Positions 6,700 to 36,985 are shown, counted from the first letter of the stretch. The stretch: DNA of 36,985 nucleotides from Collodictyon triciliatum (GCA_043381765.1 JBHJMP010000874.1:1-36985); one strand, 5' to 3'. The notes: generated by a model from the letters alone, not told the origin. Made by a program: numbers and translations.

Positions 6700-7242
6700 N
6701 NNNNNNNNNNNNNNNNNNNNNNNNNNNNNNNNNNNNNNNNNNNNNNNNNNNNNNNNNNNNNNNNNNNNNNNNNNNNNNNNNNNNNNNNNNNNNNNNNNNN
6801 NNNNNNNNNNNNNNNNNNNNNNNNNNNNNNNNNNNNNNNNNNNNNNNNNNNNNNNNNNNNNNNNNNNNNNNNNNNNNNNNNNNNNNNNNNNNNNNNNNNN
6901 NNNNNNNNNNNNNNNNNNNNNNNNNNNNNNNNNNNNNNNNNNNNNNNNNNNNNNNNNNNNNNNNNNNNNNNNNNNNNNNNNNNNNNNNNNNNNNNNNNNN
7001 NNNNNNNNNNNNNNNNNNNNNNNNNNNNNNNNNNNNNNNNNNNNNNNNNNNNNNNNNNNNNNNNNNNNNNNNNNNNNNNNNNNNNNNNNNNNNNNNNNNN
7101 NNNNNNNNNNNNNNNNNNNNNNNNNNNNNNNNNNNNNNNNNNNNNNNNNNNNNNNNNNNNNNNNNNNNNNNNNNNNNNNNNNNNNNNNNNNNNNNNNNNN
7201 NNNNNNNNNNNNNNNNNNNNNNNNNNNNNNNNNNNNNNNNNN
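6700..7242. other. Assembly gap (N run)
   Basis: 543 consecutive N, followed on the right by (ATT)n. Confidence 1.
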
Positions 7243-10300: not shown

Positions 10301-12316
10301 TATTTGTAAATATATTATTTGTAATTAACCACGCTATTTCAAAGGATGCTAAAGTTGAGCCATATGTCGTTTTTCTTCTCCTGTGCGAATGCATTTTGGC
10401 AGTCTGGAGCAGTGTTATGGCGGTCTCAAGCTTATTGTATAAGAAAAAGAAGCGAACATCGGTTAATATGAACACCATCTTTGGTCTTGTGTCTTTGTTT
10501 GCTATATGTAGGTTTAGAATAATTGAAGTACTCTCCTGCTTCATAGCTTGATTAAGTGAAAGTGACATTCCATATGCTTCAATTTATTAATTTCTATACT
10601 ACTTATTTATTAGTTCGAGCCGTTTTTTTCGGTCTTCAATTCGACGATGTAGTAACTGAAGGAAGCAATCTCCAGCTTATTCTCTATGATTTTCCCGTCG
10701 CAATTTACTTTATGATGTTTTCTGTTCTTTTGTTTTTCTGGTAAGTACGAATGGATGTCGAGTATGAATTTAGGACCTACTCTTTTTGAACTGATTAGTC
10801 GTCTCTCTTCTCGTCTTAACAAAATATCAACCAATGTGCACTTCATGATAACAAAACTTGCTAATTTAGCTTATGTAATGAAATCAGGATTGAAATATCA
10901 GACCAAAAGTATGCCTTTCAAACACAAACACCCGAGAGTCTGAAGCGGCCCATGCGCGCAATTAATGCGGTTATACTTTTTATATTTGCGACCTTGATAA
11001 CAGTCAACAATACTGCATCCTCGAAGCATTTTAGAGTGAGTTTATGGCCCCAATTACTTCTTTTTTTTTAACAATCAGTTTCTCTCTCTTTATTCTGTTT
11101 ATGAATCACACCATATTTGTTTGAATTTGGAATTTTACTTCATTCCATAACACGCATTGTTTTGTTGATTGTATCTCTTTGTTGGATATCCAAAACATGG
11201 TGCTGATTGGTTTGGTGGATAAAAAACAAAATCTAAAATGCCTCATGATGAATTTTGAAACCATTTCGTCTTTTACAACCAGGCTGCCTTAGTCGCATAC
11301 TACTCTACTTTGGTGGCTCTTTCAGGGGCCATCGCTGTCGGTTTTCTGCACTATGGCATCAAAGTGTTGCGGGTAATAAATTCTTTAAGCCTGGCAGAAA
11401 TATCCAAACGGCAGAAAGACCACGCGCGGAAGGTATCACAAACGCTTTAAAAAACACAGCATTTTGTGCGACAGATGCCCAATATTCTTGATACAGATAC
11501 CTTTCTATCTTTGGGCAATATAAAACCATCAACAACATACACGAACGTTGTGGAAAATAGAGTCACTAAGTGGGACTTTTTACATCAGATTACCTTGGTG
11601 ACTGCGATAACAGCAGTGGGCTTACTTGTGAAATGTGCATGGACTCTGGCATCCATCTATGTTGATGAAAGCAATGTCAATATTATATGTACTATCATCC
11701 TTTTTACAGAGGTAGATTATGTGGCTCGCGACAATCTCTGACTTTTTTCGTTTTATTTTAAATTTTTCAATCCTTTGAGAGTCACAGTGATGTAGAAGAT
11801 GACTTTAATGTGAACGCACATTCGTATTCCCCGCGTTATTTTCTCCAAAGTCTCTCGCTGTAAACTGGTAATAATAAAAAGTTAATATTTCTCAAAGTCT
11901 GTTTTTCAACACATAGATTGTACCATGCGCTACGTTTCTGCTTGTGTTTGGTACACTCCCAAGGATACTACGCAAGGTTAAATGCCTCTTTCCAAATGCA
12001 ATTCCAACAAGGTGACTAAATCTTTGCTTGCTTCTATCAGTAAAATTCATTCATAAATGCATAAGCGATTACAGAGAATGTAAAAAAAAAATACGAAAGA
12101 AATAAAAGAATGAAATCAAAGGGAATAAAAGAGCAGTAAGAGGCGATTTAAAAAGACAAGGTTGTATGAAAAATTAAAAAAAAAAAAAGGTGTTGCATTG
12201 CTGAAGTCTGCAACGCCACCCCATGTCCTTAACATCTTGCTCTCCTTGGCAGATGGTTTGATATGAAAAGCACAGAGTCTTCCAGAGAGTCACACACGCA
12301 CTCAGCCGCCGAGTAA
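7333..12316 (+). CDS. Cys-rich ectodomain plus THH1/TOM1 (DUF1084/GPR137-like) seven-transmembrane protein; many exons, 5' end unresolved (probably within or before the gap)
   Basis: Ectodomain exons: CTQETCENG, GYCNNKYL, FGACNGYYG...GCVNLKYNLTECLN, ECDKCGGYKETIYTWKKGEW, WREKKYVSVNRYVPTLN...SLCRFNPVASALVFYACDC, with several N-x-S/T sites. Seven hydrophobic segments from about 10345 include VRAVFF...ILYDFPVAIYFMMFSVLLFFWIEIS (TOM1-type D.P...F..L..FWAEI), INAVILFIF, GFLHYGIKVL, KITLVTAITAVGLLVKC and LFTEIVP. The most parsimonious end is ...SHTHSAAE* at 12314-12316. Confidence 0.8.
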
Positions 12317-12649
12317 CTGAGCTCCCAAGCCGACTCATCCGCGGCCGAAGCGACATACTTGAAGCAGCCGACTCCCACAACCCCCAAAAAACGAAGCACA
12401 TCCTTCGGCATCGACACGTCTGTTAGTCACACCCGCGAAATAAAGAAATAAAAAATAAAATAAAATAAAATAAAAATACATGGGCGAGTGATTATGATGA
12501 GCATGAAAAAACCAACCTGTGCAAGAATAGTTTGTACGCAACCACCCACAAAACGAGGAAAGAAGAAAAGGGAGGACACTCTCAAACAGACCCTCGGGCT
12601 CAGCAGAACAAACTCGATTCATCACCACGTAGGACAACGGCAGAGCGGT

Positions 12650-14528
12650 ATGAGCGAGGGCAACGAGTTTGGAGACGCTTTGCTGGCTTTGCAGCGGTCC
12701 AAGTCTTTCAGTCAAGCTTACGAAGCCGCGATCGAGAAGGTAAGCGACAGCACAAACTTGACTTGCCGAAAGACAAGACAGCCAAGAAAAATCATATCCT
12801 TTATCATAACCAAGTAATACACACGCATTCCCTTTTACAAGCCCGAGCGAAGGTAGTTCGTACCAGCAACCTCAACAGAAGCAACACCATCGCAGTAACC
12901 ACATGCAGGAGGTGGTATTTCTTCTCATATACCAACTAACCATATCATTCTTTGGATGCCTGAACACAGATCAGTGATGACTTTGATGGTTTCGATTCTT
13001 CAATCCTCGGCATGACAGACCAGCTCCATAAAGCCTTAGATTCAAAGCTAAACTATGAGGTCGATGGGGTTTGTCTTGCTTGTGCACCCCATTTTATTTT
13101 ACTATGGCGAACGTTTTGTGCGTTGCCTCGTCATTTCTAACATGCATCATGTTTTTCTCTTTATCGTCGCGTTACGCCCCAAAGTGGGAGATTGAAGAAA
13201 AAAGAAAAAAAGAGAATAGAAGATACTAAAAATTGGCAATCACGTGGATATGATTGTTGTAGGTGAATCTTTTTCGTAGCGGATATTATAAAAGCATAAC
13301 ATTTGCAGAGAATCAAGGGCGCCTCCTTTTACTAGAGTACGACCGCTATGTTCGAAACAGAAAAAGAGACACCGCGATGCAAAATCCTTTCAACATGCAG
13401 CGAATGATGGGCATTCTGACCCCTGGTATATCCAAAGAGTCTTCGAAAAGCTCCACAGGCGCACAAAAAGGCCTGATTGGCCATGTGCACATCCCACCAG
13501 CACGCATGATTCTCTTACGCTCAGACTGCAAAAGCATTACGATGAAGACCAGCACCAGGGTAGAGGGACAATCGGCAGAAGCGAAGGATATCCAAGCGAT
13601 ACTGCATGAATCTGAGCTGAAAGGAAGTGGAGAGCACAAATACTGGGTCCACGCTGGCTATTCTCCCATCATTTGGGACCTAGGGGCAATGGTGGAAGAA
13701 CCCGTGCAAGTTTTTGAAAGTATTGGGGAGAAAAGACTTTCTCGAACGTTTGGTATTGCTGTAAATCCCCTCACTCAGAATTTGTACGTCGGCAACCAAG
13801 GGACATCGGAGGTTTATCAGTGCACATTGAATGGAGAGCTTATTCGCAGCCTGGACAGGGCCATACCTGAGCCGACAATACCAACATTTTCTGTTCTTTT
13901 GGGGATTGCTGTATCATCATTGGGTCGCGTGGCTGTAACTTCGAACTCCACACACGACGTGCATCTCTTTACCAGCGAGATGGAACACATTACAACTCTG
14001 AAAAAGTTTATCCAGAAAAATGAAGGCGGTGATCTTGATGAAGCTAGTTCTGGTCCGATTTCGGTAGCATTTGACGCGAACGATAACCTGTACGTGAGCG
14101 ACCACAACAACAATAGTGTGGCCAAGTTTGACGCGAAAGGAGACCTCGTCAAATCCGTCAGCTACAAAACAGTTGAAGGACTTCGTGGTGTGTATGGCCT
14201 GGGCGTTGATGACGATGATCGTGTGTTGTGCATAGCTTATGGTGTGGCAAACATCGTGGTTCTCAACTCAGATTTGGAGTATCTAGAGTCGTACAACCTT
14301 GCAGCCCCAACAAGGTCGTTCAACTCCATTGGTCGTGGGCCAAACGGAGGCTTCATTGTGACCGATTATGCTGCCAATGAAGTGCACTTTCTCAGCAAGG
14401 GCGGGACTCATATGGGTTCTGTGGCTGTGCCTGGGTCGCCCACTGCCGCATGCTTTGCCAATGGTATGCTTTATGTTGTGCGACAAGATGATGCCGCAAT
14501 CAGTGTGTTACGTTCAGGACGAGCTTAA
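12650..14528 (+). CDS. NHL-repeat (six-bladed beta-propeller) protein with a short helical N-terminus
   Basis: The long ORF 13263-14528 begins directly after an AG acceptor. It has NHL blades TFGIAVNPLTQNLYVGNQG, LGIAVSSLGRVAVT, PISVAFDANDNLYVSDHNNNSVAKFDAKG, YGLGVDDDDRV, GPNGGFIVTDYAANEVHF and PTAACFANGMLYV. The upstream phase-0 exon ISDDFDG...EVDG (about 12970-13068) joins in frame. The start codon (12494 or 12650) is uncertain. Confidence 0.8.
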
Positions 14529-14902
14529 ATCGTGCTGGTCCAGTAGGCCTCTTTGGCTCAAGACCGAATAAAATCGAAAGCCGATAGGCAAATGGATTAT
14601 GCATACACAAAATGCTTTATGGTTGTAGAAGGCGACCCAAGAGAACTAAATTTCTAGGCTCTATTAAAAAAAAAAAAAAAAAAAAGGAAGGAATTGGTGA
14701 ATGAAGAAATGAAGGAATCAACAGTCGAGGGAGGAAAAAAGGTTTGGAATGGGAGGGAAAAAAGAACAGGAGATTCGCGCTTTCAAAATGCCGGCTGTGG
14801 ATAGTTGCGAAAGCAGCAAGGCCAACAACTGAAGGAGAGTAAGAAGCGAAAAAAGGTGAATAGGGATGTTATTTTGTTTTTGTTTTTCTGTTTTGTTCAT
14901 GT

Positions 14903-15922
<1,020 letters not shown>

Positions 15923-16313
15923 TGTGCGCAGTCATTGTGCGGGTTTGTTGGCGCGTGGTGGTCTTTATTCTGTATGGACGCACACGCACGCACACACGCT
16001 ACATGCACGCGCCTGTCCAACGAATTCGTTTCGTTTTTTCTTCTGTTGTTCTATTTTTTGTTTTCATTATTTATTTATTTATTTATTTATTTTATCTTTC
16101 TTCTTTCTTTCTCTTCAAAGACAGCTGTGTTGCAATGATTCTACAAGACGAGCCATGTGCCTCAGCATTCTCTTGTGGCAAAAGCGAGTCTTGATAACAA
16201 ACCGCCCAAACACACGAGTGTCACACACAAGCTCACTTCGTCGATTCCGCTTCGCTTTCGCTACGCAGCGCTTTTATGCTCGGTGCTGGCGGAACGAACA
16301 AAGAAAAAAATCA

Positions 16314-16899
16314 ATGGCCAGCGAAAAGGAGCAATATGCGCGTGTGAACGCGTTCTCCACCATGCGTTTCAAACTAAATTCCCTTATGTGGATGATGGCA
16401 CGTGGGCAGCTTCGGCCGGGTGACTTCTTTGTTCGTGCGCTCAGCCTAATTATACCTTTCCACGGGCGATTCTCGTTGGTTTTCCCAGACGGAAAGGAAA
16501 GGAAAGGAAAAAAAAAAGGGTTGTGTGTTTGTTTGTGGCGTTGTTATAGAATCGCAAAGCTGAACCATATTCGGATCTTTTCCACAGAATAGTTTAGTGC
16601 CAAGAAGGAAATTCGCAGCACGTGTTCTCACAGCGTGTGCGTAGTCTGCAGTATCCGTGTGTTAGCGCCGCTTGCTATTCGGAGGCTTCGCATTGCTAAG
16701 GGTGCTGGTGATTCATGCCTATTATGGTATGGGTGTCTTAATGGAGAACGGCTCGCCGCATTTAGACAACGAGGTCAAGAAGATCAGACAGGTCGCCGCC
16801 AAAAGCCGAGCCATCAACCATCGCATCTGCGTCCGAGACCTTCTCCTTATCATGGAACTTAGGAGGCAACATAAAGGGTGTTGGTTAGCTCATCAATGA
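16314..16899 (+). CDS. Possible small two-exon hypothetical membrane protein
   Basis: ATG in an A-rich context opens MASEKEQYARVNAFSTMRFKLNSLMWMMARGQLRPGDFF. A phase-0 splice (gttcgt...gttag) would add RRLLFGGFALLRVLVIHAYYGMG. I recognise no family, and the 3' part is antisense to the last Ku80 exon. Confidence 0.3.
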
Positions 16900-16964
16900 A
16901 ACAGTGGAAGCAACTATGATATTAATATGTTTGAATGGTGGCTACAAAGAGTCTGGTCGTTGAC

Positions 16965-17006
<42 letters not shown>

Positions 17007-18658
17007 ACAAAAACAAAAACAAAAACAAAAACAAAAACAAAAACAAAAACAAAAACAAAAACAAAAACAAAAACAAAAACACAAAACAAAACAAAACAAA
17101 ACAAAACAAAACAAAACAAAACAAAACAAAACAAAACAAAACAAAACAAAACAAAACAAAACAAAACAAAACAAAAAACTATTCATTCATCAGACACGCA
17201 CATGACGATATAAGATGTGTATCGGCTTTCCATATTTTCATTTGATTTTCGCATGGACAAAACACGCAAAATACCTGAGTCGCTCCCTGCAGCGTATAAG
17301 CGCTCTCTGGCCATTCGATTTGGTGGATGGGGATGATATCGCGCTTCACAACGACAGAGTTCCAGAACTCCAGGGCTTGTCCGCACTCTGCTTTCCATTG
17401 TCGCAAATCAAGCAAAAAGTTATTGAAGATTTCCCCCTCTTGGTACTAAAAAAAAAAAAGTGGCTTTAGCTACGGTTGAAAAAATTACAGTCTGATTTAA
17501 AACTAGATTCGGTATTGGGCTTGGAAAAGTATGTTGGTATGATTCACACATAAAAATGAGCTGTGCTGCGAGCGCATAAATGGACGTTTTTGGCATATCT
17601 TCATTTGCACTTACCTGGACGCAAGCATCTCGCAAAGCTTCCATACAATTTCCGGCAACCCCAAAGAACTGAGCTCCTTGTGATTCACGCACAATTCGTT
17701 TGATAGCAGACTGCATTTGCTCAAGGGCTACACCATATACATTCAAGGGGTAAATACATCGATATTGCATTCGCTACGAGAAAAGGAGCGTAAAATGTGC
17801 TCGTTCATATTCAAAAAATCACAGATTCATCAAGTATGGCGCGTCTATGACTTTGTTTTTCTTTTGCCTTGTAATGAGATGTTGGAATTATTTCCTATCC
17901 CAAAGATAAACTGAAATAAACACGAATCTACCGGGTAAAACGAAATCTTCGTCTCTGCGCCTGATGAAGCTCCAAAAAGAAAGTACGGGATTAGCTATAT
18001 CAACCTGGGAACTGCCTCTGTTCAAGAAGCTCTAAACAGTTGAGATACATGAATGAATGACACCAGATGGTTATCCTAAAAACACAAGGGAACATGAAAT
18101 ATTGAGCAAAAAAAAAAAAAAAAAATACATTGAAAATAGACGATGTAGTTATGCTAGATGATTGATTTTCTTCGTAGTGCTCCTCTTCATCCCTTGCATT
18201 TCTTTCCACCGTATCATCGTCATCTAGTTTAAAAAAAAAAATTGCGCGAGTATTTCATCGTGTGCTTTATCTTGGAACTGTAAATTCAGGAGACAGAGTA
18301 TTAACTTCAATCAGAATTTTTTTAACGAAAAAAAATTCAACACGAAAAGGGAAGGAAATAGAAAGGAAAGGGTAAAGAAATCCTTACAAACATGGCTAAT
18401 TGGAAATGATCTGTAAAAGTCACTCCAAACAGCCGATACTTGTTTGGTGAAATCCTCTGAATGGTTTATCAGCCTATTCCAAAAAAAAAAATAATTCAAT
18501 TTCGAAAACGACTTTAAATTTTTCAAAAAGAGCACATATGCGTTCAAATGAGAGGAGAGGAAGCCATTCAACACGCAGCAACAATTTTACTTCTCGTATA
18601 AACATATTTTTGTTGTTTGTTTGTTTGTTTGTTTGTTAGTTTGTTTGTTTGTTTGTTG

Positions 18659-18753
<95 letters not shown>

Positions 18754-20404
18754 CATTATTATTATCATTATTATTATTATCATTATTATTATCATTATTA
18801 TTATTGAGAAGAACATAGACTTCGTATTGGAAAATTACTTTTCTATTTCACAGCTTAATTTTGGAATTTCACCGTCAGACTTTGAGACTCTTTCCATTAT
18901 GCACTGTGCGATTCGATCCAAGGCTGGGTTTGGAATATCTTCCGGACAAAAGACTCCGACTGACCTGGTTACAAATTAAAATAAACATATGCGAGAAGGG
19001 TTAAATATCAGCGAGAGGAGATCAACAGTACTTGATGATTACTTTCATATCCGAATTTTGGATTATATAATTAAAATACTGACTCTTTGAATCGAATAAA
19101 GGGGATAAAATTGATTAAAACACTGACTCGATTTCATTCTCCTTATGAAGCATCATAGCAGATATCAACTTATCCGCCGCGGTCAATTGCGCCTCAGTTG
19201 GCTGGTTCGTCGATTTGCTAAGGTCGCACACTCGGATTTTACGAAGATCTTCAGCGTATGGTATCTGGTTCATAACCAAGAAGCTTCCTTCTGCACTCTT
19301 ATCTTTAAAGGATAGAAAAATTAGAGAAAAGTGCAATACAGCTCTGTGGCTACACAACTGAAAGGCAAAGGCATGACATAAATGTGCGTAAACAAAGTAA
19401 CATATCTAAAAAAATATCAAACGACATCTTACTTTTTTTTAAAAATGGCTATCGTAATAATTAAAAACAAAGGAGAAGAAAAACAAACGTGGAGTCAAAA
19501 CACATAGAGTAGGTGCAGACGTCTGTCGATAAAGAAAATGGACCAGAATTCCTCTGTGATTACTCTCAAGGGCGGTAAAAAGTGCATTCATCATATACGC
19601 AGCTTGCCTGTTTCCTTTCGGATGCGCAACATATACACTTCCTCTGGAATACCAATGACCTAACACATCAGCATTTCAAAACTTTTTAAAGAATAAATCA
19701 CTAAAGTTCGGTACATTATAAACAATGTTCATAATATTTTGATCGCCATTTCCATTCACTACGTATTTCTATTCATAAACAAACGTTGAATAGCCTCCAA
19801 CCGAACGAAGCCTTTGCAATAAAGCCCCTTCGCCATGTCGACTCTGAGTAGAGATGCATCTACCCCGTCAGTCGACAGCTTTGTATATATTTAGTTAAAA
19901 CAAATCACATATGATGTTTTTTTAATTATATATTTGAATGTAAACATATGTTAAATTCACAAGTTTCCCTCCATATTCATAGGCAAAAGCTGTTTCGCTA
20001 TCTTGAACTTCGGTGAAAGGGTTGTTCTCAAGAACCCGGGTCGTCCTTTGGATTAAATACTTGTATCCTGCCTGGCCGCCTATTTTGTGATAGTCTTCAT
20101 CATTATAATAATAATTATTTCGTGCTACAATCTTGTTTATATACCGAACGCAAGGCAACTTGAAAGGACATGACCCACATTCTAAGCAATATAAAAAAAT
20201 TATTCGACCAATATAAAAATGTTGCAAAATATGAATCACTGACCTCGGAGTCTTTTCACTTTGCCGAATGATGCTGGTTTATGAATTGACGTTTTTACGA
20301 AGCAAGATATCTGTGCACGTGATTAAGGATGTTAAATATTGTAACATGTACAGGAGGAACCCAAGAGATAGCAGGAATTTGCATATAAGATGATGAAAAA
20401 TTCT

Positions 20405-20437
<33 letters not shown>

Positions 20438-20453
20438 NNNNNNNNNNNNNNNN

Positions 20454-20499
<46 letters not shown>

Positions 20500-20872
20500 G
20501 GTATGATAAGCTTCGATGTGATATTGAGTGTCCCATTGAGGTAAACTCTGGTACTTGTCGACCGAAGCTGTGGGACGGTGAGCTCTTCCTGCAGCAGAAC
20601 CCTTGGAATAGATGTGGATGAGCTGATTCCATGCCCGCCGGTGGAATTGGGGTCTGCATCCCCAGTGAAAGACTCTGGTTGATTTGAATTCTCAGCCTTG
20701 ACAGCTGGTATTTTTGAAACCTCAGCAGCCTTTGTACCAAGATGCGATGCATCGGTATACATCGACCCATTCGATTTCTTCGATAAGTCAATCAATTTGT
20801 GCACATAGTTATTTGCCTGGTAAAGAGTTTGATTCAGTAGAATTTAACATTGCTTTTATCAGACCCTTGATG

Positions 20873-20961
<89 letters not shown>

Positions 20962-22396
20962 GCGGCTCGTGTCAATTAAGATGGTGTTTAAAGGCAATTG
21001 TGTCTCTATCCATCTTAACATGATTTAGTATCGTCTTTTCCCCCTTTCATTTTATTCGAGATAATTTCTTGTCGGCCGATCAATTGCAGAATATGACGTA
21101 ATTCTAATAAATAGCACATACCTTGTCCTTCAGCTCATCCATATTTGTTTGCATACTGCATGATTCATTAGATCGATAGTTCAGAGACATATTGAAAAAA
21201 AATATGATGTAATTGTTTTTGAAGATTGATATTGTGCACGGATGGATAGTTGTGCTGAATGAGAACTATCGACATTACAGAGACTTCAAACCATAAATCC
21301 AAGACAATCTTTTCGGCCTTCAACTTGTCCAGAATCATGGAAAATATGTCATCACTGTCATCAATTATGCATTCATTTTCCCCGATAAAAACAACGATTC
21401 TTTTAGCAACTTTGATAGGAGATTTTTGCAGCAAGATGACCTCAATCGCAGCCAAAATCGCGTTGATGTCTGAAGGGAGATAAGAATTGAAAGTATTGGA
21501 TTATTTTTTCTTTTATCATTTTTCGACGCTGAAAAAAATTCAAAAAATTATTACAACGTCTCAAAAATTAAAATACTGCTCAAATATTACACCCATAAAG
21601 AAATTGCCAAGAAAATGTTACATTTAGATAATGGTGATTTTTTATTGATACTAATAAATATTATTTTACTAAAAAAATTTTGAAAAAATGAGGGGAATCT
21701 CTAGATATTTCATACAGTCACAGTCGAAGCCGAGTTTGGGTAGGGTCCGTATAATTGTCTGTGGGGGTGAAGCGTGGCCGAAATCGTGGACAACTGATAT
21801 GTTCTCGTATCCCTCCAGATCAAAGGGCAAAGATTTGCCTGGTTTTAAGCGTTTAGATATAGGGTGGATGAGGCATCTACTTGTTAAATATTCGATTGCT
21901 TAAAAAGATGTCCTAGCCACCCTCGCTTCCCGCAACCATGACCGCCACGTTGTCTCCGTCGGTGTGCTGGTGAAAAAGGAAAAGCGATTTTAAAGAGATA
22001 ATCTCATGACCAATGTTTTAGGCTGCTGTAACTGTATTTGCGATGTAAAGCAAGGAAAACACACTATTGTGTTCAACTCGTTCATGATTCACGCAAAGAC
22101 AGAGTGTATGTTTGCTTCCTTTTGTCTCCTTCGTATGTTTGCTTCCTTTGATGCGGTATTTTCTGAAAGGAATGGTCACCAGCTTTTCTGCATATCTCGC
22201 TGCCCACTCGACAAGGAGGTCTCTCTGGTCAGGCTTTTTCGAAAGACCAGGCCCGGCGTTCAGCAGGATCAGCGACGTGAATGCCTTGTGTGCGAGTTAC
22301 GACCCTCTTCAGTCTCCAAACTCTGGGCTGGCTTTGACACGGCGATGGAATGCGCAAGGGCAGTGGTGTACGGAAAGAGACTGCAGGGGAAAGCAT
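16762..22396 (-). CDS. XRCC5: Ku80 (NHEJ DNA end-binding subunit), about 17-19 exons
   Basis: vWA: AFTSLILLNAGPG, DNVAVMVAGSEG, GYENISVVH, KRIVVF. Core: AYEYGGKL, QIPYAEDLR, PTEAQLTAADKLISAMML, IPNPALDRIAQCI. C-terminal domain: ALEQMQSAIKRIVRES...CMEALRDAC, FNNFL, FWNSVV. Final exon ...GGDLSDLLDLVV* (stop 16762-16764). The start codon and one or two 5' exons are tentative. Confidence 0.93.
16965..17177. repeat. Compound (CAAAA)n/(CAAAAA)n microsatellite in the last Ku80 intron
   Basis: Direct reading. Confidence 0.95.
18615..18805. repeat. (TTTG)n plus (ATT)n microsatellite in a Ku80 intron
   Basis: Direct reading. Confidence 0.95.
20407..20498. repeat. (CA)n microsatellite containing a 16-N gap (20438-20453), Ku80 intron
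   Basis: Direct reading. Confidence 0.95.
20870..20960. repeat. (AAT)n microsatellite, Ku80 intron
   Basis: Direct reading. Confidence 0.95.
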
Positions 22397-24749: not shown

Positions 24750-27065
<2,316 letters not shown>

Positions 27066-27156
27066 TTGGAGATGTCTGCGGCTGGACAGAAGTTTCTGTC
27101 GTGAGAATGGTAGTGGGCTGTGGTGCTGTTCTGTTGCCTGCGAGGAAGCATGAGGG

Positions 27157-27514: not shown

Positions 27515-27760
27515 GAGTGAGTGAGTGAGTGGGTGAGTGAGTGAGTGAGTGAGTGAGTGAGGAAAGGAAAAGACTGCCCGGATCAGTTCTCATTTTCAAT
27601 CACTTTCGTTTTGTAACGAATGATGACTTCCAGGTGTTGTTTCAGGGGTTTACCCGCACTTGACTTAGGTGATGAGGCTTGGGCTTGGGCTTGTGATTAT
27701 TATTATGATTATGGTTGGGATTGTGATTGTGATTGTGATTGTGATTGTGATTGTGATTGT
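27515..27760. repeat. Intergenic (GAGT)n (27515-27560) and (GATTGT)n (27718-27760)
   Basis: Direct reading. Confidence 0.9.
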
Positions 27761-27890
27761 ATTCTTATGATTTAATTATCTTTTATCTTTTATCTTTTAA
27801 ACGCATATGTTTCGCAACATTTTGAAAGAATGATACTTCACATTTACTTGAAAATATTTAAAAATGTAAACCCTTTAATAATGAGACATG

Positions 27891-30800
27891 TTATCTACAC
27901 AGTATTACTTTACCTCTGTCTTGCTCCATGACTTCTGGAGATACGCCGATCTCGACTATTTTAGGGTACTCATGAGTCCTTTGTGGATCTAATGTTTTTG
28001 GTTTATCTGTTCCGGCATCGAACCCAACCCCGCTTATTCCTTGAACTAAATAGAAAGATTCCTTCGAATCTGATTTGGCTATACTCTGTAATACTTCCAC
28101 GGAAAACTGACATCCAGATAGCGCCTCTGACTGGATGAGAAAATGAGCATCAACCGAGCCCTCCAAGCAAAGTTCTCCAATCAAGTGCAAGGCGACACTA
28201 GATCCGTTTCTGAAAGATTCCTCTAGAACCTGGTAAACATCTGTAGATCTAAAGTGAATCATCTCTTTCATATAGACCAGAGATCTTTCATGTCCTTTTA
28301 TTGACAAATCCTTCAGTATATCGAATGCGATAATAGACCCTTTTCTGGCAGCATCTCTTAATATTTCGGCTCCATCATCCAGTCTATCTTCAAATATATT
28401 TCTGTGTACGCCCACGACGCCTTTGGTCCATATTTGAACAAACTCCTTCATCACTTGGAATGCATGAGGCGAATCCCTGTGAATGTTTTCTTTTAAAATC
28501 ACCATGGATTTCTTGTAAATGTTAATAACTCTCTCACTCAAAATACGGTTCATTTTCTCAATAGAGTCCATCTCCATATCCTGAGAAAGAGCCATCGGGT
28601 GAACTTTTGCTCTGGTTTTTTCATAAAAATTAACATCAAGCTTACGTTTGCTATCTTTAGGGGTTATTATTTCATCAAATGTCCAATATTCCTCAAAAAA
28701 ATTATTTTCAATCTCCTTTAAAACACTGAATATGTATTCAGGATGTATTTCAGCGCTATTGACCAGAACAATCCAAGCTGTTTCATAATCCTGCTCGGCC
28801 ATATCTCTTAATATGCTAAATACATATCCAGGTTTTGTTTCCATAATTTCTACTAAAATCTTCCAAGCTTTTTCAATATTATCTTCCGCCATTTCTTTTA
28901 ATACCCGAAAAGAATATTCTGGTTTCTCTTCGATGGTATTTATGAGAACAGTCCAAGCCCTTTCGCAACCCTGCTCGGCCATATCTTTTAATATGCTAAA
29001 TACATATCCAGGTTTTGTTTCCATATTTTCGATCAAAAATTCCCAAGCTCTTTCATTATAATTTTCTACCAATTTTTTCAAATAACTAAATCCTTCTCCT
29101 GGTTGTGTTTCGATTTTGTCCGCCAAAATTGTCCAAGCCTCTTCACTATAATTTCTGGTCATATCCTCTAATGATTTAAACAAGTCTTCTAGAGTATTCC
29201 CCATAATTTCTATTAAAATAGTCCAAGTTATTTTGTGATCTTCTTTCGAATCATCTATAACTCCTGATTCAGATGATACTGTTTTATCAATGCTATCTGA
29301 TAAAATTTTCCATGCTTTTTTAGAATCCACTAAAATCATTTCTTTCAGTAAGGAAACTGCATAGTGATTGCTATCTCTTGTGCCCTCGCTTAAAATAGAC
29401 CATGCACCGTTCGAATCGTTCAGAAGCATCTCTCTTAGCAAGAGATAAAAATCCGTTGATCCGTTTTCGAATAAATCCTTAATAATATCCTTAGATAATC
29501 TGGAGTCGTGCTTTGCATCTGCTTTGAGAAATTCTCGGGCCTTGTTTTCGGGATGTTGCATCAAGTCTCTCATTATTATTCTTGCATCTATAAATTCATT
29601 AAAGTGAAGGACCTTTAGGGCGTAAAATGCATCCAAAGACCCTTCTTGAATAAGTTTTTGTAACACGATGGCGCCGTTACTTATTCCTTGTTCAACTGTA
29701 TCTTTTATCACTTGCAATGAATCCTTACATCCATTCATTGCCATTTCTTGGAATAATGATATTGATTTTTCCGACCCACTCATAGCGCTTTTTTTTAATA
29801 AATGGATAACAGTTGCATTTCTCTGCATAAGCAACTCTCTAATTAAATCGAAAACTTCGATAGAATCTTCAAAAAAACTATGCATCAGCACACATATTGC
29901 ATTTCTATATCCTCCTTTCGCCATGTTTTTCAAAATTGTATAGGCCTCTATTGAATTATCGTTAGCCAAACTTGTTAATGCTTTGAGGTGATCATCACAA
30001 CCTTCCCTAGATTTGGTAGCTAAAAATTCTATGAAAATCGTATTTTCATCGCTGATTAATTTCATATCTGTTAATTCTTTTACTATTCGGTACCTCTTGA
30101 TTGCCTCTTCTTTGTCTTGGTCTTCTGTCAATCCGTTTTCGTAACATTCTTCAACAGTCGACATCGCCTCACTCTTTTCTTCAGGGCCTAAGTTTGATTG
30201 GTCGTATTTTTTCTCAATAGAAACACTTTCCTGGTCTGAATTAGCTATGGGCATCAATTGAGAAAAACCACTCTCTGAACTTTCTTTTCTCAAAGATTTT
30301 GTCTGATCAAAAGACTGTGAGCTTCGTGGGCGTGAAGCTTTGTATGTTTTTGACTTCAGCTGTACTTTGGATGGATTCACTCTGTCATAATTTGTTGATA
30401 ATTGAGAATTTGTATAATTCATCGGAAATTTTTTTAAAATTGCGACTGCTTCCAAATGTCTTGGTATAAATCTGACTAAATTTCTTCCACCACTTCTCGA
30501 AAAAAAATTAATATTAATATCTGCTAGTTTCCTTAGCGAATCAAATGCATTGAGAGAACCATTTTCCAATAACATGCCGAGCCTTGTGAAATTTTCGGAT
30601 TTTTCATACCACTCGCACGCAACTTTCTCATTGTTTTCAACCGCCCATCCCCTCTCGTAACATTCCCCAAGGATATAACAAACCCTTTGATTAATATTTT
30701 TTCTTTTGAATTCCATTGAACTACATTTGAGGAGCAATCCGAAGGCAAATTTGTTTCCATTTTTTACACTTGAAGCAATATTTCTCAAGCTTTCATCAAA

Positions 30801-33800
30801 ATATTCCTGAAGAAACTCCAAGATAGTGTATTCATCTTCAACCGATATTAAATATTCCATTGATTTTTCTATATTCTTTTTCAGTAGTAAACGATCTTTA
30901 AAATAATTATTTATCATTTTTACGGCCTCGATGCGGGCAAGATTTACGCCGAATTTTTTCTTTGAGATAGCGAGCAATATTTCGAAAGCTTCCTTTACTT
31001 GATTGTGTGCGTGAGAATTCAATTTTTCATAACTACTAGATTCATAGTTCATCACCAGAGATTTTCTAATATCTTTATCCACGCCCCATCCATTTTCATA
31101 GCATTCTGCAATTCCATCAGAGATATAAGGACATACATTTTCTTGATTTAACTTTGAATTCTGATAAAGTTCAAGCAGACAATCAAAAGCGTCGTGTGAA
31201 CCTTTTTTTGCCATCGTTTTCAGTACCTGAACGTCCTCTCTAGTTTTGGCTTCTGATATATATTTCCAGAACTCGTATTGTTCTTTATCCTTTTCTACGC
31301 TCCATCCATCGAGATAACATCGTGCGATTAATTGTGCCAATTCAGGATATTTTTGGTAATTTCCTTCTTTTACTGTAGATAATCTTAACAAGTGCAAAAA
31401 TGCAAACCGAAAATTTTTTTTCACCATTTCCGTCAAAAAACGCACTCTACTTTCAGTTTTGTCTTCATATGTTTCTCTCTCCTGTTCTTTTTCTTCCTCT
31501 TTCAAAATCTGTAAGAAATCTGAAACGGTATCGTAGGTCTGAGACATTTCGATATCTTTGGACACACTCCATCCTTCCTTATAACAATCCGACAATATTT
31601 TAACCAAATCAAGGAAAAAATCGTTATCGATCGGCAAAGTTTCTGATAGTTGCTCCATGTATTCAAAGTGAATTCTACTGCCCATCATGGCATTTTTTTT
31701 GAGAGTGCTTAGTACTTCTTTTGGATATTTTTGATATAATTTCCATAAGAGAACAAAATTTTGCCCCTTGCAATAGAAGTTGGTAGCTGATTCTGGATTC
31801 TGTTGGCAAATCCACCCGTTTTCGAAGCACTCTCCAAGAGTAGATAACACACCTGACTCCACAAAAGATATTTTTCCCTGTTCGCGGTGTTTTCCTTGCA
31901 AATCCTCGTTGATTGAAGTTAAAAGCTCATAAGCATACCTATTTTTTCTCTTTATCAGTCTTTTTAGATCTGAAAAGCTACTCGCTTTGAGATACAGGTA
32001 AGCAGCTCTTTCTGGTTGCAGCTTGACAATCCTTCCCTTTTCAAACCATGAAGCAATTACTGAGAGGGCATCTCTTAACTTTTTCCTTTTTTTTTGTCCG
32101 TAGATATCAAGTGATAGCTGCAAAAGTTCCTTATTTTCTACTATCTCGATCAATTTTTTGAATGCGCTCTCTGAACCCCCTCGACTTAATCTTAGCAATG
32201 ATATCACATCAAGGCCCTTGAAATAGTATAACTCGGCTGTCTCTTGAGAAGATTTGACACCTATTCCGCTTTCATATAATTTGCCAATCTCAGCTGATGC
32301 CTCTGGGAACTTCAAGCTATCCTTTTCGTCGAGTGATTCAGAGTAATTGTACAAAACATCATAAGCTCTAGGTACTTTATACTCTGCTAGTCGCCTTATC
32401 CCTTTAAAATCAAGTACTTTTTGATAACACTTTAAGGCTTCAAAATAATCTTGTTCTACCACCCAGCCATTCTCATAGATTTTTCCTAAAATGGACAGAG
32501 CTTCAGGGTATAAATAATCTGTCTCGTTATATATTATTTGACCCATTTCCAAAACCAACTCATATGCATTCCTTGATTTCTTCATAGCCATATGTTCTAT
32601 AATCTTATAGTTATCTGGGTGCTTCTTCAACTGTAAAAGTTCTAGTTTTGATAATAATCTCTCCTCTTCGTTTTTTTCGAAATCCTCTGCAAGAAGAACA
32701 GCACCTAAATATCTTAGTCTTCCGAATTCGTCTTCTTCTGTCTTGATTCTTTTTAATGACTCTGTGGCCTCCTTTGAATTAACTTGCACTAACCTTTGTA
32801 ATTCTTCAATATCCTTGTTTTCTTCATATAATTTTGTCGCCTTTTTTAAATCTCTCTTCACCGTCCACCCCTTTTCGTAGCATCGGGCGATGCAACAGAC
32901 CGCATTTTGGTATTTAATTTTATCGTTCTCTGTGATAATTGATAAATCTTTGAGGGCGTAGAATGCTAAAGGCAGAACTCTGGCATGTTTTTGCAACTCT
33001 TTGTAATTTTTTGACCTTGCTAGCCAAATTATTGTGTTGTTTAAATCTCTTGTGGTTCCTAATCCATATTCATAGCATTTACTCATACAATAAGCCTGAC
33101 AATCAGTTACTTCATGGGTTCTGCAGAACTTTACAAATTCTGATGTGTATGAAACAGCGCCAATCTCAAACAAAATGGTCTTATTTATCAAACTCAATTC
33201 ACGGCACTCTGTTATATCTATAAAACCCCCTACTATTGTTTCTCTTTCGAAGGTATCCTGACTAATATCATCTTCAATATCACATGAATTTTCCAAATAA
33301 CCAATTTTCTCTTGAGACTGCCCAAAAAATCCTAAATTCATATGGGCACAATACTTTTGATTCAAATATCTATCTTCCAAAAAACTAGATATGCTGTGTA
33401 ATTTTGTGGATATTTCTGCCATTTTTTCCAAGTTCCATAATTTCTCGTCTCGGTCACCCTTAAGAATTAATATTGGTTCGAGTTCAGAGTTTAATTTAAT
33501 GTAAGCATGAGTTATTGGGCTTTTCTTCTTTTTTAATTCGTAAGAATCATTCGGCTCGAATATCGTATTTTTCATGTTGCATCCCTTAAACTTGCAATTT
33601 CCAAGGTACGATTTTGAAAATATAACCCCTTGTAGATCAGAGCCGCTAAAGTCGGCACCATTTATTAAAGATTTGCTCAAGTTGGCGTTTGGTATGCTGA
33701 CTCCAGACAGATTCATATTACTGAATCCTACATTCATAAAATTCAACATAGTAATGGCCTTGGAAGCCGAATCAGCCTTTTTTTCGTCTTCTCTTGATGA

Positions 33801-35820
33801 GAAAAGTATTTTAAAAAGATAGGCGATTATTTTCTGCCGATTCCATATAGAATTCATGTCAAATGAGGAATAGTTGTCTTTTACGAACTGTAACACCTCG
33901 GTTAATTCAGAGGGCTCTTTTTTTACCCCAGAATATTCGAATAAATCACAGAGATATGTGCATGAATTCAATGTATAAATACTGCTCCATTTTTTCTTTG
34001 CATTCATCGTTAATCTCATTTTATCCCATATTTTCATGCACATATTATGTTCTTTCTTTTCTAGTAATTTGTTATGAACTTTAACAATAAATTTCCAAGA
34101 GTCCGTGCTACCTCCTGATAGTAAATCGATGTGCAGAAAAGCAGAGGCTTTGTATAATTCCAAAGCAACAGAAGTCAGGGATTCAGCGTCCATAAATACT
34201 GCGATAGCCTCAACTTGTGTAGGATTTTTGAGTGATGCGTTTGTTTGGGTTTCGATCCTTATTTTATGGGCCTCTTGAAAAAATGGTATGGATTCTTGAT
34301 ACCTAATTGCAAAATGGAAAATCATAATTTAAAAACGCTCTAATAATGTCTCATTTTAATAAAAAAAAATATATTTTTTTTATCATTTTCAATCGGTTTC
34401 AATTACCTTTTTATCTCAAAAAGTGTTCGACCAACACTTTCATAAGATTTAGCAATATCGGGATGATCTGGATTCATATTCTTTAATCTTAAATCCATCG
34501 CCTTCTTGTAGTTCTCGAGAGCATCATCAAACCTCAATTATTAGAATTTTAACAATTTTCAAATCTTTTTGAAATATTCCTTATTTAGATTTTTATGATA
34601 TTGAATTATTATGCATATTAATAATAATTCAAAATCAAGTCTTTTTCATTTTTAATGATAACTGACTACTGCAAATATACTTATATGTAAATTAAGTATT
34701 ACTTTTCTTCATCAAAGTATGCGTCTGCTAAGGCCTCATACATAGGGACCGATTCAAACTCTGCCGTTTTTTTAGTCTCTGATTGCATTGATATCGACTT
34801 CAGCATATATTTGACACTCTCTTGTTTGCTATTTACAATATTAAAAATAAATTGCATAGATCACGAATATTTATATAAAGAAACGGCAGCCATGCAACAA
34901 ACCTTCAAACTTTGAATCTAATAAAGGGAAAAATACAACAAACCTTCCTAATCGATTCTGAACTTCTGCAATCTTCTTGTTTATTTCAACCATCAACTTG
35001 TGGCTTTTTCCAACTATTTTACCCAAAAAATCTTCTGACTGTTCATAGGCATCCATCAAATGGCTCAGGCTGCAAGAATTATGGTTAGTTGACATAGAAA
35101 AAAATTATTAATTTAAAATATTACAAATTTTCATCCCAAAATATTGTGATTAATTTTTCGTGAGACATCGCAGCAAAATCCTCTTGTAGAAACAGGTAAA
35201 TTGTTATCGCAATTGTAACATCTAGATTCATTTAAAAATTAATGACCAAACCATCATAAAAAGTAATGGACACTTGAAAAAATTATTCTGTCTCACCTCT
35301 GAAATTTCCTTCTTTAAATTTAATCAGATTTTGTTGTGAAATTGGTGCTATTCTGCCAGATATCCAATTTAAGAGGATGGATTGATTTTTTTTAATATGA
35401 GATGGCTCCTCTAAGGATGCATACCTGTGATTATATGTTAATAATTAAATTTATGAGATTCCTAAACTATGAAAATAAATATTTATTTATTAGAACTTTC
35501 TTGAGCATACATCGTTGGGCGTGCTCTCATTTTTTTCGGAGGATTTTTCAGCTGCAGTAATTCTATTAGCATTTGAAGAATGCATCCGTCATATAAACCG
35601 GTTTCATAATTCGAAAGTATGACACCCAGACACCCGATACGGAAATTAATCCACCTTGTGAATACCTAACATTTATGCCAAAACGAAGGAAATAAATAAT
35701 CCTGATTTTCTATAGAGATCACATTTTCGTGTGCTTAAGTCAATTAATTTGGCATATCACCACCTGATGCAATTCAAAATTCTTCTTTGAGTATCTCTCC
35801 TCAAATCTGTTTTGCGACAT
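27891..35820 (-). CDS. About 2394-aa mosaic repeat protein: degenerate CH segments, 42-aa TPRs, pentapeptide repeats, Sel1-like repeats and 15/30-aa helical repeats
   Basis: Eight exons with GT-AG boundaries and consistent phases: 35820-35764, 35665-35511, 35424-35297, 35221-35167, 35069-34944, 34828-34703, 34532-34407, 34302-27891 (7185 nt in total). Motifs: VFTRWINFRI...GLYDGCILQMLIELL (CH); FDDALENYKKAMDLRLKNMNPDHPDIAKSY (TPR); NLSGVSIPNANLSKSLINGADFSGSDLQG (pentapeptide); LGECYERGWAVENNEKVACEWY (Sel1). Confidence 0.85.
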
Positions 35821-36420
35821 ATTTGGTCTCTCTTAGGTACTTGACCCAATGTAGAGTATGGTAGTTTTATTATCTTCTCCTTTATCAAACCCTTAAGAGA
35901 TTATAACTCCTAGTGACATAGTATTTGGCGTGGTATATTAATAATTTACTTCCAATTTTTTACATCTGAAATATTAAATGTGTGTATGTAGACTAAGGCT
36001 TTACTGCCTTACTCAATCTAAGCCCTCTCATCTTTGAATATATAAAGAAGATATTCAGTGTATTTTTTGGATAATCTTGTTAAATATGATAACCAAACCA
36101 AAACTCTTGTCAAGTATATTTTTTGTTACCTAATTGGTAATGCTGTAGTTGATTCTCTTTTCTGACAGATCTCTCCAGTCAGTGATAATTATTCAGGCTT
36201 TTTAATAATGAATTATGATTTATATTATTATATATCAATGATCCTATGAGCACTAACAGATTATTCATAGGGTTGTAATGAGAAAAAGTTATGATTAAAT
36301 CATTATAGAAGGAAGAAGGAGGGAAAATCTTATTTTAGCAGAGGGAAACGTTTATTCGATCACGTTGTCACAGAATATTAGAAGGGGTTTAGTTTAGTGT
36401 ATGAATATATGGTCGAGAGG

Positions 36421-36575
36421 TTTGTGTCTTTTGTGTCTTTTGTGTCTTTTGTGTCTTTTGTGTCTTTTGTGTCTTTTGTGTCTTTTGTGTCTTTTGTGTC
36501 TTTTGTGTCTTTTGTGTCTTTTGTGCCTTTTGTGCCTTTTGTGTCTTTTGTGTCTTTTGTGTCTTTTGTGTCTTT
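36421..36575. repeat. 9-bp minisatellite (TTTTGTGTC)n, about 17 copies
   Basis: Direct reading. Confidence 0.95.
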
Positions 36576-36985
36576 TTATGCGGTATTAGGGGACATTGAT
36601 TGTTTTGGTGGCTGATTGACTTTTAAAATATATATGTATAAAACAAATAAGTAATGATGCGAGCAGAAAGGCAGGAATGTGATCTGGCCATATGAAAAGC
36701 GCCAGGCCTTTAGTATCCTGTGCGCAATAAGGAGCGCTATGGCACGATCAAAGCCGAGAATGGTGCGGCAGAATAAGGAGCGGCATTTTGACAAGCTGTG
36801 AGCCTTAAATCTGATTGCTTGGTTCAGCGTATTGACTATTCTGGAATTTACAAATCCGGAATTTATAATTTAGCCCATTTTTTAATCTAGCACAGGCTCA
36901 TCCGCACGATCGCCGGCACTGATGGATATGAGGAAGAAGGTGGGGACGAGAAAAAAAACGAGGCGTCATGGAGGAAAGAAAAAAA

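Follow-up and report, generated by a model that had tools for sequence, protein, structure and literature searches.

An eight-exon repeat-protein gene of Collodictyon triciliatum, a probable NTPase-less derivative of a protist STAND family

This study concerns one minus-strand gene in a 36,985-nucleotide (nt) stretch of Collodictyon triciliatum DNA (GCA_043381765.1 JBHJMP010000874.1:1-36985), which in its whole length is called the window here. We propose, with a probability of roughly 0.55 for both parts taken together, that this locus is a transcribed, intact eight-exon gene for a cytosolic repeat protein of 2408 amino acids (aa) and that the gene is an NTPase-less, propeller-less and Sel1-expanded derivative of a protist STAND (NLR-like) family. 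The fuller members of this family are predicted from sequence to run from CH through DUF4062 (TIR-like), NACHT, TPR_12, helical linker, pentapeptide beta-helix and WD40 to a Sel1 tail. The modules of the window protein stand in the order CH-like head, three 42-aa TPR exons, helical linker, pentapeptide beta-helix, one WD40-like blade remnant, about 11 Sel1 units and a 770-aa all-helical tail. It has thus retained the head, the three TPR exons, the linker, the pentapeptide helix, a single blade-like remnant and the tail domain of the family, and it is without DUF4062, NTPase and propeller, with at least 11 Sel1 units followed by 770 residues of helical repeats.

RESULTS

Gene model and transcript evidence

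The locus contains a minus-strand open reading frame (ORF) of 2144 codons (27891..34325), in a region with a G+C content of 30-38%. An open run of this length is not a product of chance, given that about 7% of codons are expected to be stops at 35% G+C. An earlier note on this DNA had proposed that seven small upstream exons splice in frame onto this ORF, taken as the last exon, to give a protein of about 2394 aa. The eight-exon model was confirmed by the joints of a spliced contig and by the open joined frame; the actual length read from that frame is 2408 aa, and the first 8 codons of the listed ORF turned out to be intronic.

The transcript evidence comes from a single public run (share of words 0.07), whose RNA nature is a guess ("RNA?"). 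The spliced contig from this run has 1045 letters, a depth of 10.3 and about 99% identity to the window, and it lies in eight pieces from 35841 down to 34097, skipping seven stretches and so joining seven small exons to the 6.4-kb exon. Six of the seven contig joints are printed as CT..AC, which is GT..AG on the minus strand, and the seventh (35223->35305), printed as AG..AA with 8 letters between, becomes GT..AG after a two-letter ambiguity is removed. With the exons joined by coordinates, gt...ag is found at 7/7 introns (98, 86, 75, 55, 115, 170 and 104 nt, in order), and the joined frame is open over 7227 nt, equal to 2408 aa and a stop. That the contig is free of introns argues that the run is cDNA, even if its RNA nature was guessed. 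The three listed substitutions between contig and window comprise one synonymous change and two conservative ones (A>V and L>V).

Exon 1 (35764..35841, minus strand like all exons of the gene) begins where the contig has its 5' end, at 35841, and holds the ATG at 35820 and 19 codons. An in-frame TAA lies 15 nt 5' of this ATG and inside the contig, and the N-terminus is therefore complete. Exon 8 (27891..34302) is 6412 nt long including the stop at 27891-27893 and encodes residues 272-2408. We found no second copy of the gene by tblastn of the spliced protein against the window, and a blastp self-comparison of the protein gave no match off the diagonal.

Relatives and collinearity

We scanned 1.84 billion representatives with HMMER, using residues 273-1472 as the query, which yielded 1314 representatives at E<=1e-3, of which 30 reached <=1e-10 and 2 reached <=1e-30. 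The top matches, 25-34% identical, came from the EukProt transcripts of Diphylleia rotans, a flagellate. Among the Diphylleia relatives, P0003 (2619 aa) has the order CH - DUF4062 - NACHT - TPR_12 - pentapeptide - WD40 - Sel1 tail. Its Pfam matches include CH at 43.5 bits, DUF4062 at 42.3 bits and NACHT/nSTAND1, with NACHT at 25.1 bits and just under the cut-off of 26.7, together with TPR_12, pentapeptide and 14 WD40 stretches. By eye, P0003 also appears to carry part of another CH-like segment at residues 1-45, ahead of the CH at 191-277 that Pfam supports.

Collinearity was examined by local phmmer of the spliced protein against 153 fetched proteins, and three blocks align in order between the window protein and P0003. 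The CH block pairs window residues 23-94 with P0003 192-262; the second and longest pairs window residues 146-515 with P0003 1248-1616 at 138 bits; and the third, a tail ending in one Sel1 unit, pairs window residues 577-701 with P0003 2488-2611. The start of the second block, residue 146, is also where exon 5 starts. P0002 shares the second and third blocks, separated there by its WD40 array. P0004 has the order NACHT - pentapeptide - WD40 - Sel1 array, and its Sel1 array aligns to that of the window protein over more than 400 residues.

Most of the 150 listed representatives (129) matched via the pentapeptide module, and 20 matched via Sel1 only. An iterated NTPase profile detected a STAND NTPase in 43/129 of the listed pentapeptide-type relatives, and in 42/88 of those with at least 800 aa. 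The NTPase lies N-terminal to the pentapeptide module in 36/43 of these listed carriers, and it was found in 0/20 of the Sel1-only proteins. Proteins matching through the module only included, by their NCBI/UniRef names, NB-ARC, NACHT and WD40 proteins from Hexamita inflata and Anaeramoeba flamelloides, and two of the Sel1-only matches, P0005 and P0007, are unnamed environmental proteins at 37-41% identity.

The suggestion of the earlier note that the protein belongs to a module-shuffling family linked to NLR-like proteins is supported, both by the DUF4062 and NACHT domains of the closest relatives and by the 43/129 listed pentapeptide-type relatives with a STAND NTPase. Its remark that no described protein has this architecture was too strong, given that the order pentapeptide, WD40, Sel1 occurs in P0003 and P0004 of Diphylleia rotans. 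A word-index protein search with the ORF had returned nothing at E<=1e-3, either at near lengths (4819 candidates) or at shorter lengths with whole-ORF words (7998). This null result says little about novelty, since the same search missed P0003, which HMMER found.

Missing NTPase and effector

A STAND or NLR-type NTPase was not detected in the window protein. There was no Pfam match to NACHT or NB-ARC on the ORF or the upstream exons, no Walker A motif (G....GK[ST]) in the protein, and a score of only 2.3 bits with the iterated NTPase profile. When seven relatives were compared to the whole 37-kb window by tblastn, matches were confined to the gene's own exons, and the introns, at only 55-170 nt, are too small to contain an overlooked exon. 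Likewise, no match to a DUF4062/TeTIR effector was found in the ORF or the upstream exons, and the N-terminus is CH-like instead. Without NTPase, Walker A motif or effector, the window protein cannot act alone as an NLR-type switch, and the idea of the earlier note that the protein is itself an NLR-like receptor was not sustained. Two other hallmarks of STAND proteins are present: C-terminal superstructure-forming repeats, in the form of probable TPR_12, pentapeptide and Sel1 units, and homology in the parts outside the NTPase, in the form of the three blocks collinear with P0003, which carries both DUF4062 and NACHT.

CH-like head, TPR exons and linker

The CH-like domain begins in exon 2 (35511..35665), which encodes its first half (residues 20-71), continues in exon 3 (35297..35424; residues 71-113, with an A8 and an A3 run), its middle, and presumably ends in exon 4 (35125..35221; residues 114-145). 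Exon 2 alone matched Pfam CH (PF00307) at E 2.8e-4 and 21.5 bits (cut-off 26), over profile positions 7-52 of 109, and by phmmer against the PDB it matched CH1 of filamin-B/A at E 7.7e-5 and 26 bits. This segment also aligns to the CH domain of P0003. The earlier note had spoken of CH segments in the plural; a CH-like part is indeed present, as one domain and not several. The rest of the module list in that note, namely 42-aa TPR, pentapeptide and Sel1, was correct.

Exons 5 (34944..35069), 6 (34703..34828) and 7 (34407..34532) are each 126 nt long with phase 2 at both ends, one 42-aa unit per exon. Exon 5 opens, at residue 146, the long block shared with P0003, exon 6 is a unit of the TPR region, and exon 7 is a probable TPR_12 unit that alone matched Pfam TPR_12 (PF13424) at E 5.8e-7 and 30.0 bits, with the cut-off at 30.1. 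The TPR region aligns with P0002 and P0003 where these have their TPR_12 arrays. It is followed by the end of the TPR region and a helical linker (33744..34301, minus strand; residues 273-458), homologous to P0002, P0003 and P0006. In an AlphaFold2 (AF2) model made with an alignment (A1), the linker region is helical, with a predicted local distance difference test (pLDDT) score of 48-66 in the block of model residues 1-70 and of 83-89 at model residues 71-160.

Pentapeptide helix, blade remnant and tail domain

The pentapeptide-repeat beta-helix (33552..33743, minus strand; residues ~459-522) was recognized both by Pfam and by AF2. Matches to Pfam Pentapeptide (PF00805) scored 39-47 bits (47.3 at best; cut-off 20.2), and the AF2 model has regular single-residue strands here with pLDDT above 90. 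Foldseek with the core model returned pentapeptide proteins as top matches, with E 4e-3 at best and 0 at E<=1e-3. The AF2 model of residues 273-706, built from a 24-sequence alignment, has a pLDDT of 75.1 and a predicted template modeling (pTM) score of 0.65, and it shows helices, the confident pentapeptide beta-helix, a single four-stranded sheet, a disordered stretch and a confident tail domain, in this order.

The four-stranded sheet (33408..33509, minus strand; residues 537-570; strands at model residues 265-298, pLDDT 72-84) occupies the position of the relatives' propellers in the core model and aligns to the P0002 segment directly after its WD40 array. We read this modeled sheet as a putative leftover WD40 blade. 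Pfam WD40 had no match in the window protein, for which this one sheet is predicted and no propeller. The tail domain, here called domain Y, together with the first Sel1 unit (33012..33233, minus strand; residues 629-702; pLDDT ~90) has homologous counterparts in P0002, P0003 and P0006, where they form the C-terminal tail.

Sel1 array and C-terminal helical region

The Sel1-like array (30483..33107, minus strand; residues 671-1545) contains 10/11 core motifs, 65-147 aa apart. Pfam Sel1 (PF08238) matched the ORF at E 2e-25 and 88.7 bits (cut-off 30.7). In all, 11 Sel1 core motifs were located at residues 681 to 1658, and their spacing, mostly 65-89 residues, indicates that canonical units alternate with a second hairpin. 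A Ser/Lys-rich linker (30183..30482, minus strand; residues 1546-1645), probably disordered judging from its composition and from the first part of the C-terminal model, where pLDDT is below 50, separates the array from a C-terminal all-helical repeat region (27894..30182, minus strand; residues 1646-2408), which holds the last Sel1 core motif at 1658. The last 770 residues matched no Pfam family and fell below the Sel1 threshold. An AF2 model of the tail from the single sequence shows about 40 helices of about 12 residues each. Within it, Tandem Repeats Finder identified a repeat with a period of 90/180 nt (28762-29146; 65-75% matches) that encodes a 30-aa unit. Foldseek with the low-confidence tail model found generic alpha-solenoids with TM scores of 0.21 or below, which speaks to fold class only, and an ESM Atlas search with the 769-aa tail found mostly bacterial Sel1-like clusters (best score 0.86, recognition 1142), which we treat as leads only.

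Neighborhood of the gene

The composition of the window is a mosaic (12000-17000 compared with 17000-22000 and 28000-36000), and its AT-rich parts hold host genes as well. G+C at third codon positions (GC3) is 0.34 in the gene described here, 0.48 in an NHL ORF (13263-14528), 0.59 in a bHLH ORF (14903-15931) and 0.58 in a dehydrogenase exon (24750-25172). The NHL ORF, on the plus strand, is a single frame of 421 codons with an NHL repeat (Pfam 30.2 bits); its relatives are 8 distant matches among 5.8 billion proteins, at 26-31% identity, and the sole source-named one is bacterial. On the minus strand at 14903-15931, the GC-rich ORF encodes a helix-loop-helix domain (27.5 bits) as well as a tract rich in Ser and Asp and a long run of poly-Q/CAG. 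A Ku80-like gene has exons at 17420-21500 (minus strand), with Ku_PK_bind at 25.9 bits (cut-off 25) and a Ku beta-barrel at 21.4 bits, below cut-off. Exons of a zinc-type/medium-chain oxidoreductase lie at 24750-27100 (minus strand; ADH_N_2 40.5 bits, ADH_zinc_N_2 21.6 bits) and are interrupted by a long ATT/ATA-type microsatellite at ~26450-26730.

Just downstream of the stop codon of the eight-exon gene, at 27600-27893, the summed contig depth in the run reaches 5538, and 592/691 records fit two places. We think that this high depth marks a simple or dispersed repeat and is not a sign of expression. The window also contains N runs (scaffold gaps) as well as many long microsatellites or short tandem repeats whose units measure 2-15 nt (~6700-7240, ~20500, 16900-17200 and 36380-36620), and one such gap/repeat stretch terminates the gene's 5' flank.

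DISCUSSION

The open frame across eight canonically spliced exons and the three blocks collinear with P0003 carry our reading of this locus as an intact gene derived from a protist STAND family. Several observations weigh against it. Of exon 8, the first 206 nt are covered by the contig and the rest is uncovered, and that the run is RNA is a guess. In exon 3, the contig has 131 letters and the window 128, with +1 in the A8 run and +2 in the A3 run (net +3), and the contig taken literally meets a TAA between these two runs. This mismatch could reflect homopolymer errors in the contig or in the window, whether from assembly or from the reads, or else a broken allele. We take the window as right at this place, given that its frame is open and that the same frame aligns to P0003 there, and we take the contig version to be error-prone or to represent another allele. 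The CH domain is recognizable by sequence in its first half only, given that exons 3 and 4, each searched alone, had no Pfam or PDB match; the CH block scored 21.7-27.7 bits against P0003 in the 153-sequence set and would not by itself reach significance if a whole library were searched. Identity to the relatives is only 25-34%, and the model of the C-terminal tail is of low confidence (mean pLDDT 55.8). Whether the NTPase was lost or was never there is judged from collinearity and not from a tree, so that "loss" would be the apparent history. Lastly, the role of a cytoskeleton-tethered scaffold or sensor-only partner, including binding to actin, microtubules or paralogues, is one that we infer entirely, and we hold it to be the most likely role.

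Other explanations of the same observations have to be considered, and the leading ones, from more to less likely, see the gene or its product as a housekeeping scaffold, as a relic in decay or as a receptor that works autonomously. It is possible, though on balance we doubt it, that the gene encodes a housekeeping cytoskeletal or flagellar scaffold without a defence role, whose link to STAND proteins reflects shared repeat ancestry; NPHP3, a TPR_12 protein of this superfamily with a ciliary role, would be the parallel. The CH-like head and the lack of an effector domain in the window protein would both fit such a scaffold. The NPHP3 TPR model matches the TPR units, weakly on exon 7 (18.1 bits) and more strongly in P0002 (89.7 bits), and NPHP3 is placed in the TeTIR/NACHT family, lacking the catalytic glutamate, in the available text of the work on that family. 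A conserved gene of this kind would be expected to have closer counterparts, however, and no orthologue above 57% identity was present among the 1.84 billion representatives (the match at that value being to a 132-aa fragment), which is unusual even though the organism is poorly sampled. The arrays also look recently expanded, judging from the 90/180-nt repeat with its 65-75% matches.

The absence of DUF4062, NACHT and propeller, the frameshift into a TAA in the literal reading of contig exon 3, and C-terminal repeats without a family match could instead indicate a decaying relic, that is, a STAND gene minus its NTPase that is still transcribed and has no useful role. We consider this improbable, given that a 7227-nt frame over eight exons is open and that, with about 7% stops, it would not persist unselected. 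In addition, all seven splice sites are canonical, the window frame of exon 3 is the frame that aligns to P0003, and of the three listed substitutions, two are conservative (A>V, L>V) and the third is synonymous. An active innate-immune receptor that senses microbial ligands via its repeats and signals on its own is less probable again: its relatives are NLR-like, and the DUF4062/TeTIR domains of the family are reported as NADases in the source text available, but the window protein has neither the NTPase switch nor the effector, the two defining parts of a receptor of this type.

Least probable of all, in our estimate, is a bacterial origin of the Sel1 part with subsequent fusion to a host gene. 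The Sel1-only matches P0005 and P0007 are unnamed environmental proteins at 37-41% identity, the ESM Atlas neighbors of the tail are mostly bacterial Sel1 clusters (leads only), and the GC3 of the gene is 0.34 compared to 0.48-0.59 in three neighbors. Against this, the exon with the array is continuous with spliced eukaryotic exons, and AT-rich parts elsewhere in the window hold host genes, such as the Ku80-like one. A Sel1 unit follows domain Y in P0002, P0003 and P0006, at the same place as in the window protein, and P0004 has a long array; together these indicate that the array is native to the family, and we rejected horizontal transfer of the array on this evidence.

The window protein can be compared to several known systems. 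The Diphylleia rotans proteins P0003, P0002, P0006 and P0004, all unnamed Trinity ORFs, share collinear CH, TPR-linker-pentapeptide and Sel1-unit tail blocks with it, and P0004 shares the long Sel1 array after the pentapeptide and WD40 parts. These relatives differ in carrying NACHT (P0003 also DUF4062) and one or more WD40 propellers, of which the window protein has none, and the window protein has a far longer Sel1/helical body. The order DUF4062 - NACHT - TPR or WD40 in the relatives is that of the TeTIR/DUF4062-NACHT STAND family (TEP1, NWD1, NWD2, TTC41 and NPHP3) as given in the available text on it, and the TPR units of the window protein are probably of the TPR_12/NPHP3 type. Unlike members of that family, the window protein is without both defining domains, and a CH head, pentapeptide helix and Sel1 arrays are absent from the family's description in the same available text. 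Hexamita inflata and Anaeramoeba flamelloides have NB-ARC/NACHT - pentapeptide - WD40 proteins that share the pentapeptide module and its N-terminal cap (~90-150 residues, 33-46% identity), but nothing matches outside that module, and these proteins bear an NTPase and propellers.

At the level of single modules, the window protein resembles Sel1-like repeat (SLR) solenoids in its Pfam Sel1 score (88.7 bits), its 11 core motifs and its match to the PDB Sel1 protein 6ur7 at E 8.8e-4. It departs from them in three respects: canonical units and a degenerate second hairpin follow each other in turn, one protein joins the array to CH, TPR and pentapeptide modules, and the last 770 residues fall below the Sel1 threshold. 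Its Pfam match, confident AF2 beta-helix and top Foldseek matches liken it to pentapeptide-repeat proteins, which form a right-handed quadrilateral beta-helix (MfpA/Qnr, Rfr), whereas it has only about 12 pentapeptide turns inside a giant protein and a Foldseek E of 4e-3 at best, with none at 1e-3. In the accessible part of an eLife study of conflict systems in prokaryotes, the superstructure-forming domains of such systems include beta-propeller, TPR and pentapeptide repeats, and Sel1 is named as a peptidoglycan-associating effector domain. This account, so far as that part of it goes, fits the general remark on these modules in the earlier note and does not describe the architecture found here. 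In the literature as seen in titles and the openings of abstracts, we found no CH-bearing STAND protein and no eukaryotic NACHT - pentapeptide - WD40 - Sel1 family, and supplementary domain tables may bear on this. The single modules and truncated NLR-like genes are already known; what is new is the combination of modules, the exon-per-repeat structure and the apparent loss of the switch.

Two preprints, in their available text, describe the DUF4062/TeTIR domain directly upstream of NACHT in TEP1, NWD1/2, TTC41 and NPHP3 as TIR-like and that of TEP1 as an active NADase. Given these reports, the fuller relatives look like switch-plus-effector receptors. The window protein, with no nucleotide switch or effector, would be unable to signal by itself and would most likely form a long solenoid scaffold. 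Its CH-like head would tether it on actin or microtubules, and its pentapeptide and Sel1 surfaces would bind partners. Via the common TPR-linker-pentapeptide core, it may associate with full-length paralogues and serve them as a regulatory or sensor-only partner.

A bolder version of this proposal is that the gene is a sensor-only offshoot of an undescribed, cytoskeleton-anchored class of STAND receptors in deep-branching protists (CH - TIR-like NADase - NACHT - TPR - pentapeptide - WD40 - Sel1), acting as a decoy, guard or inhibitor that co-assembles with full-length paralogues through the TPR-linker-pentapeptide core. We offer this as speculation and think it unlikely as stated. If it were true, such an offshoot would be a protist counterpart of the truncated or integrated-decoy NLRs of plants.

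In summary, the interest of this locus is evolutionary, and its function is what we infer from it. STAND and NLR-like repertoires outside animals, plants and fungi are barely charted. Together with its Diphylleia relatives, the locus suggests that protist proteins of this kind can bear a CH head, a pentapeptide helix and a Sel1 tail, that repeat arrays grow and shrink between paralogue types, and that a member can drop the switch entirely yet remain open and spliced. Three phase-2 exons of 126 nt, one for each 42-aa unit, and homology that resumes at an exon boundary provide a concrete basis for this modularity.

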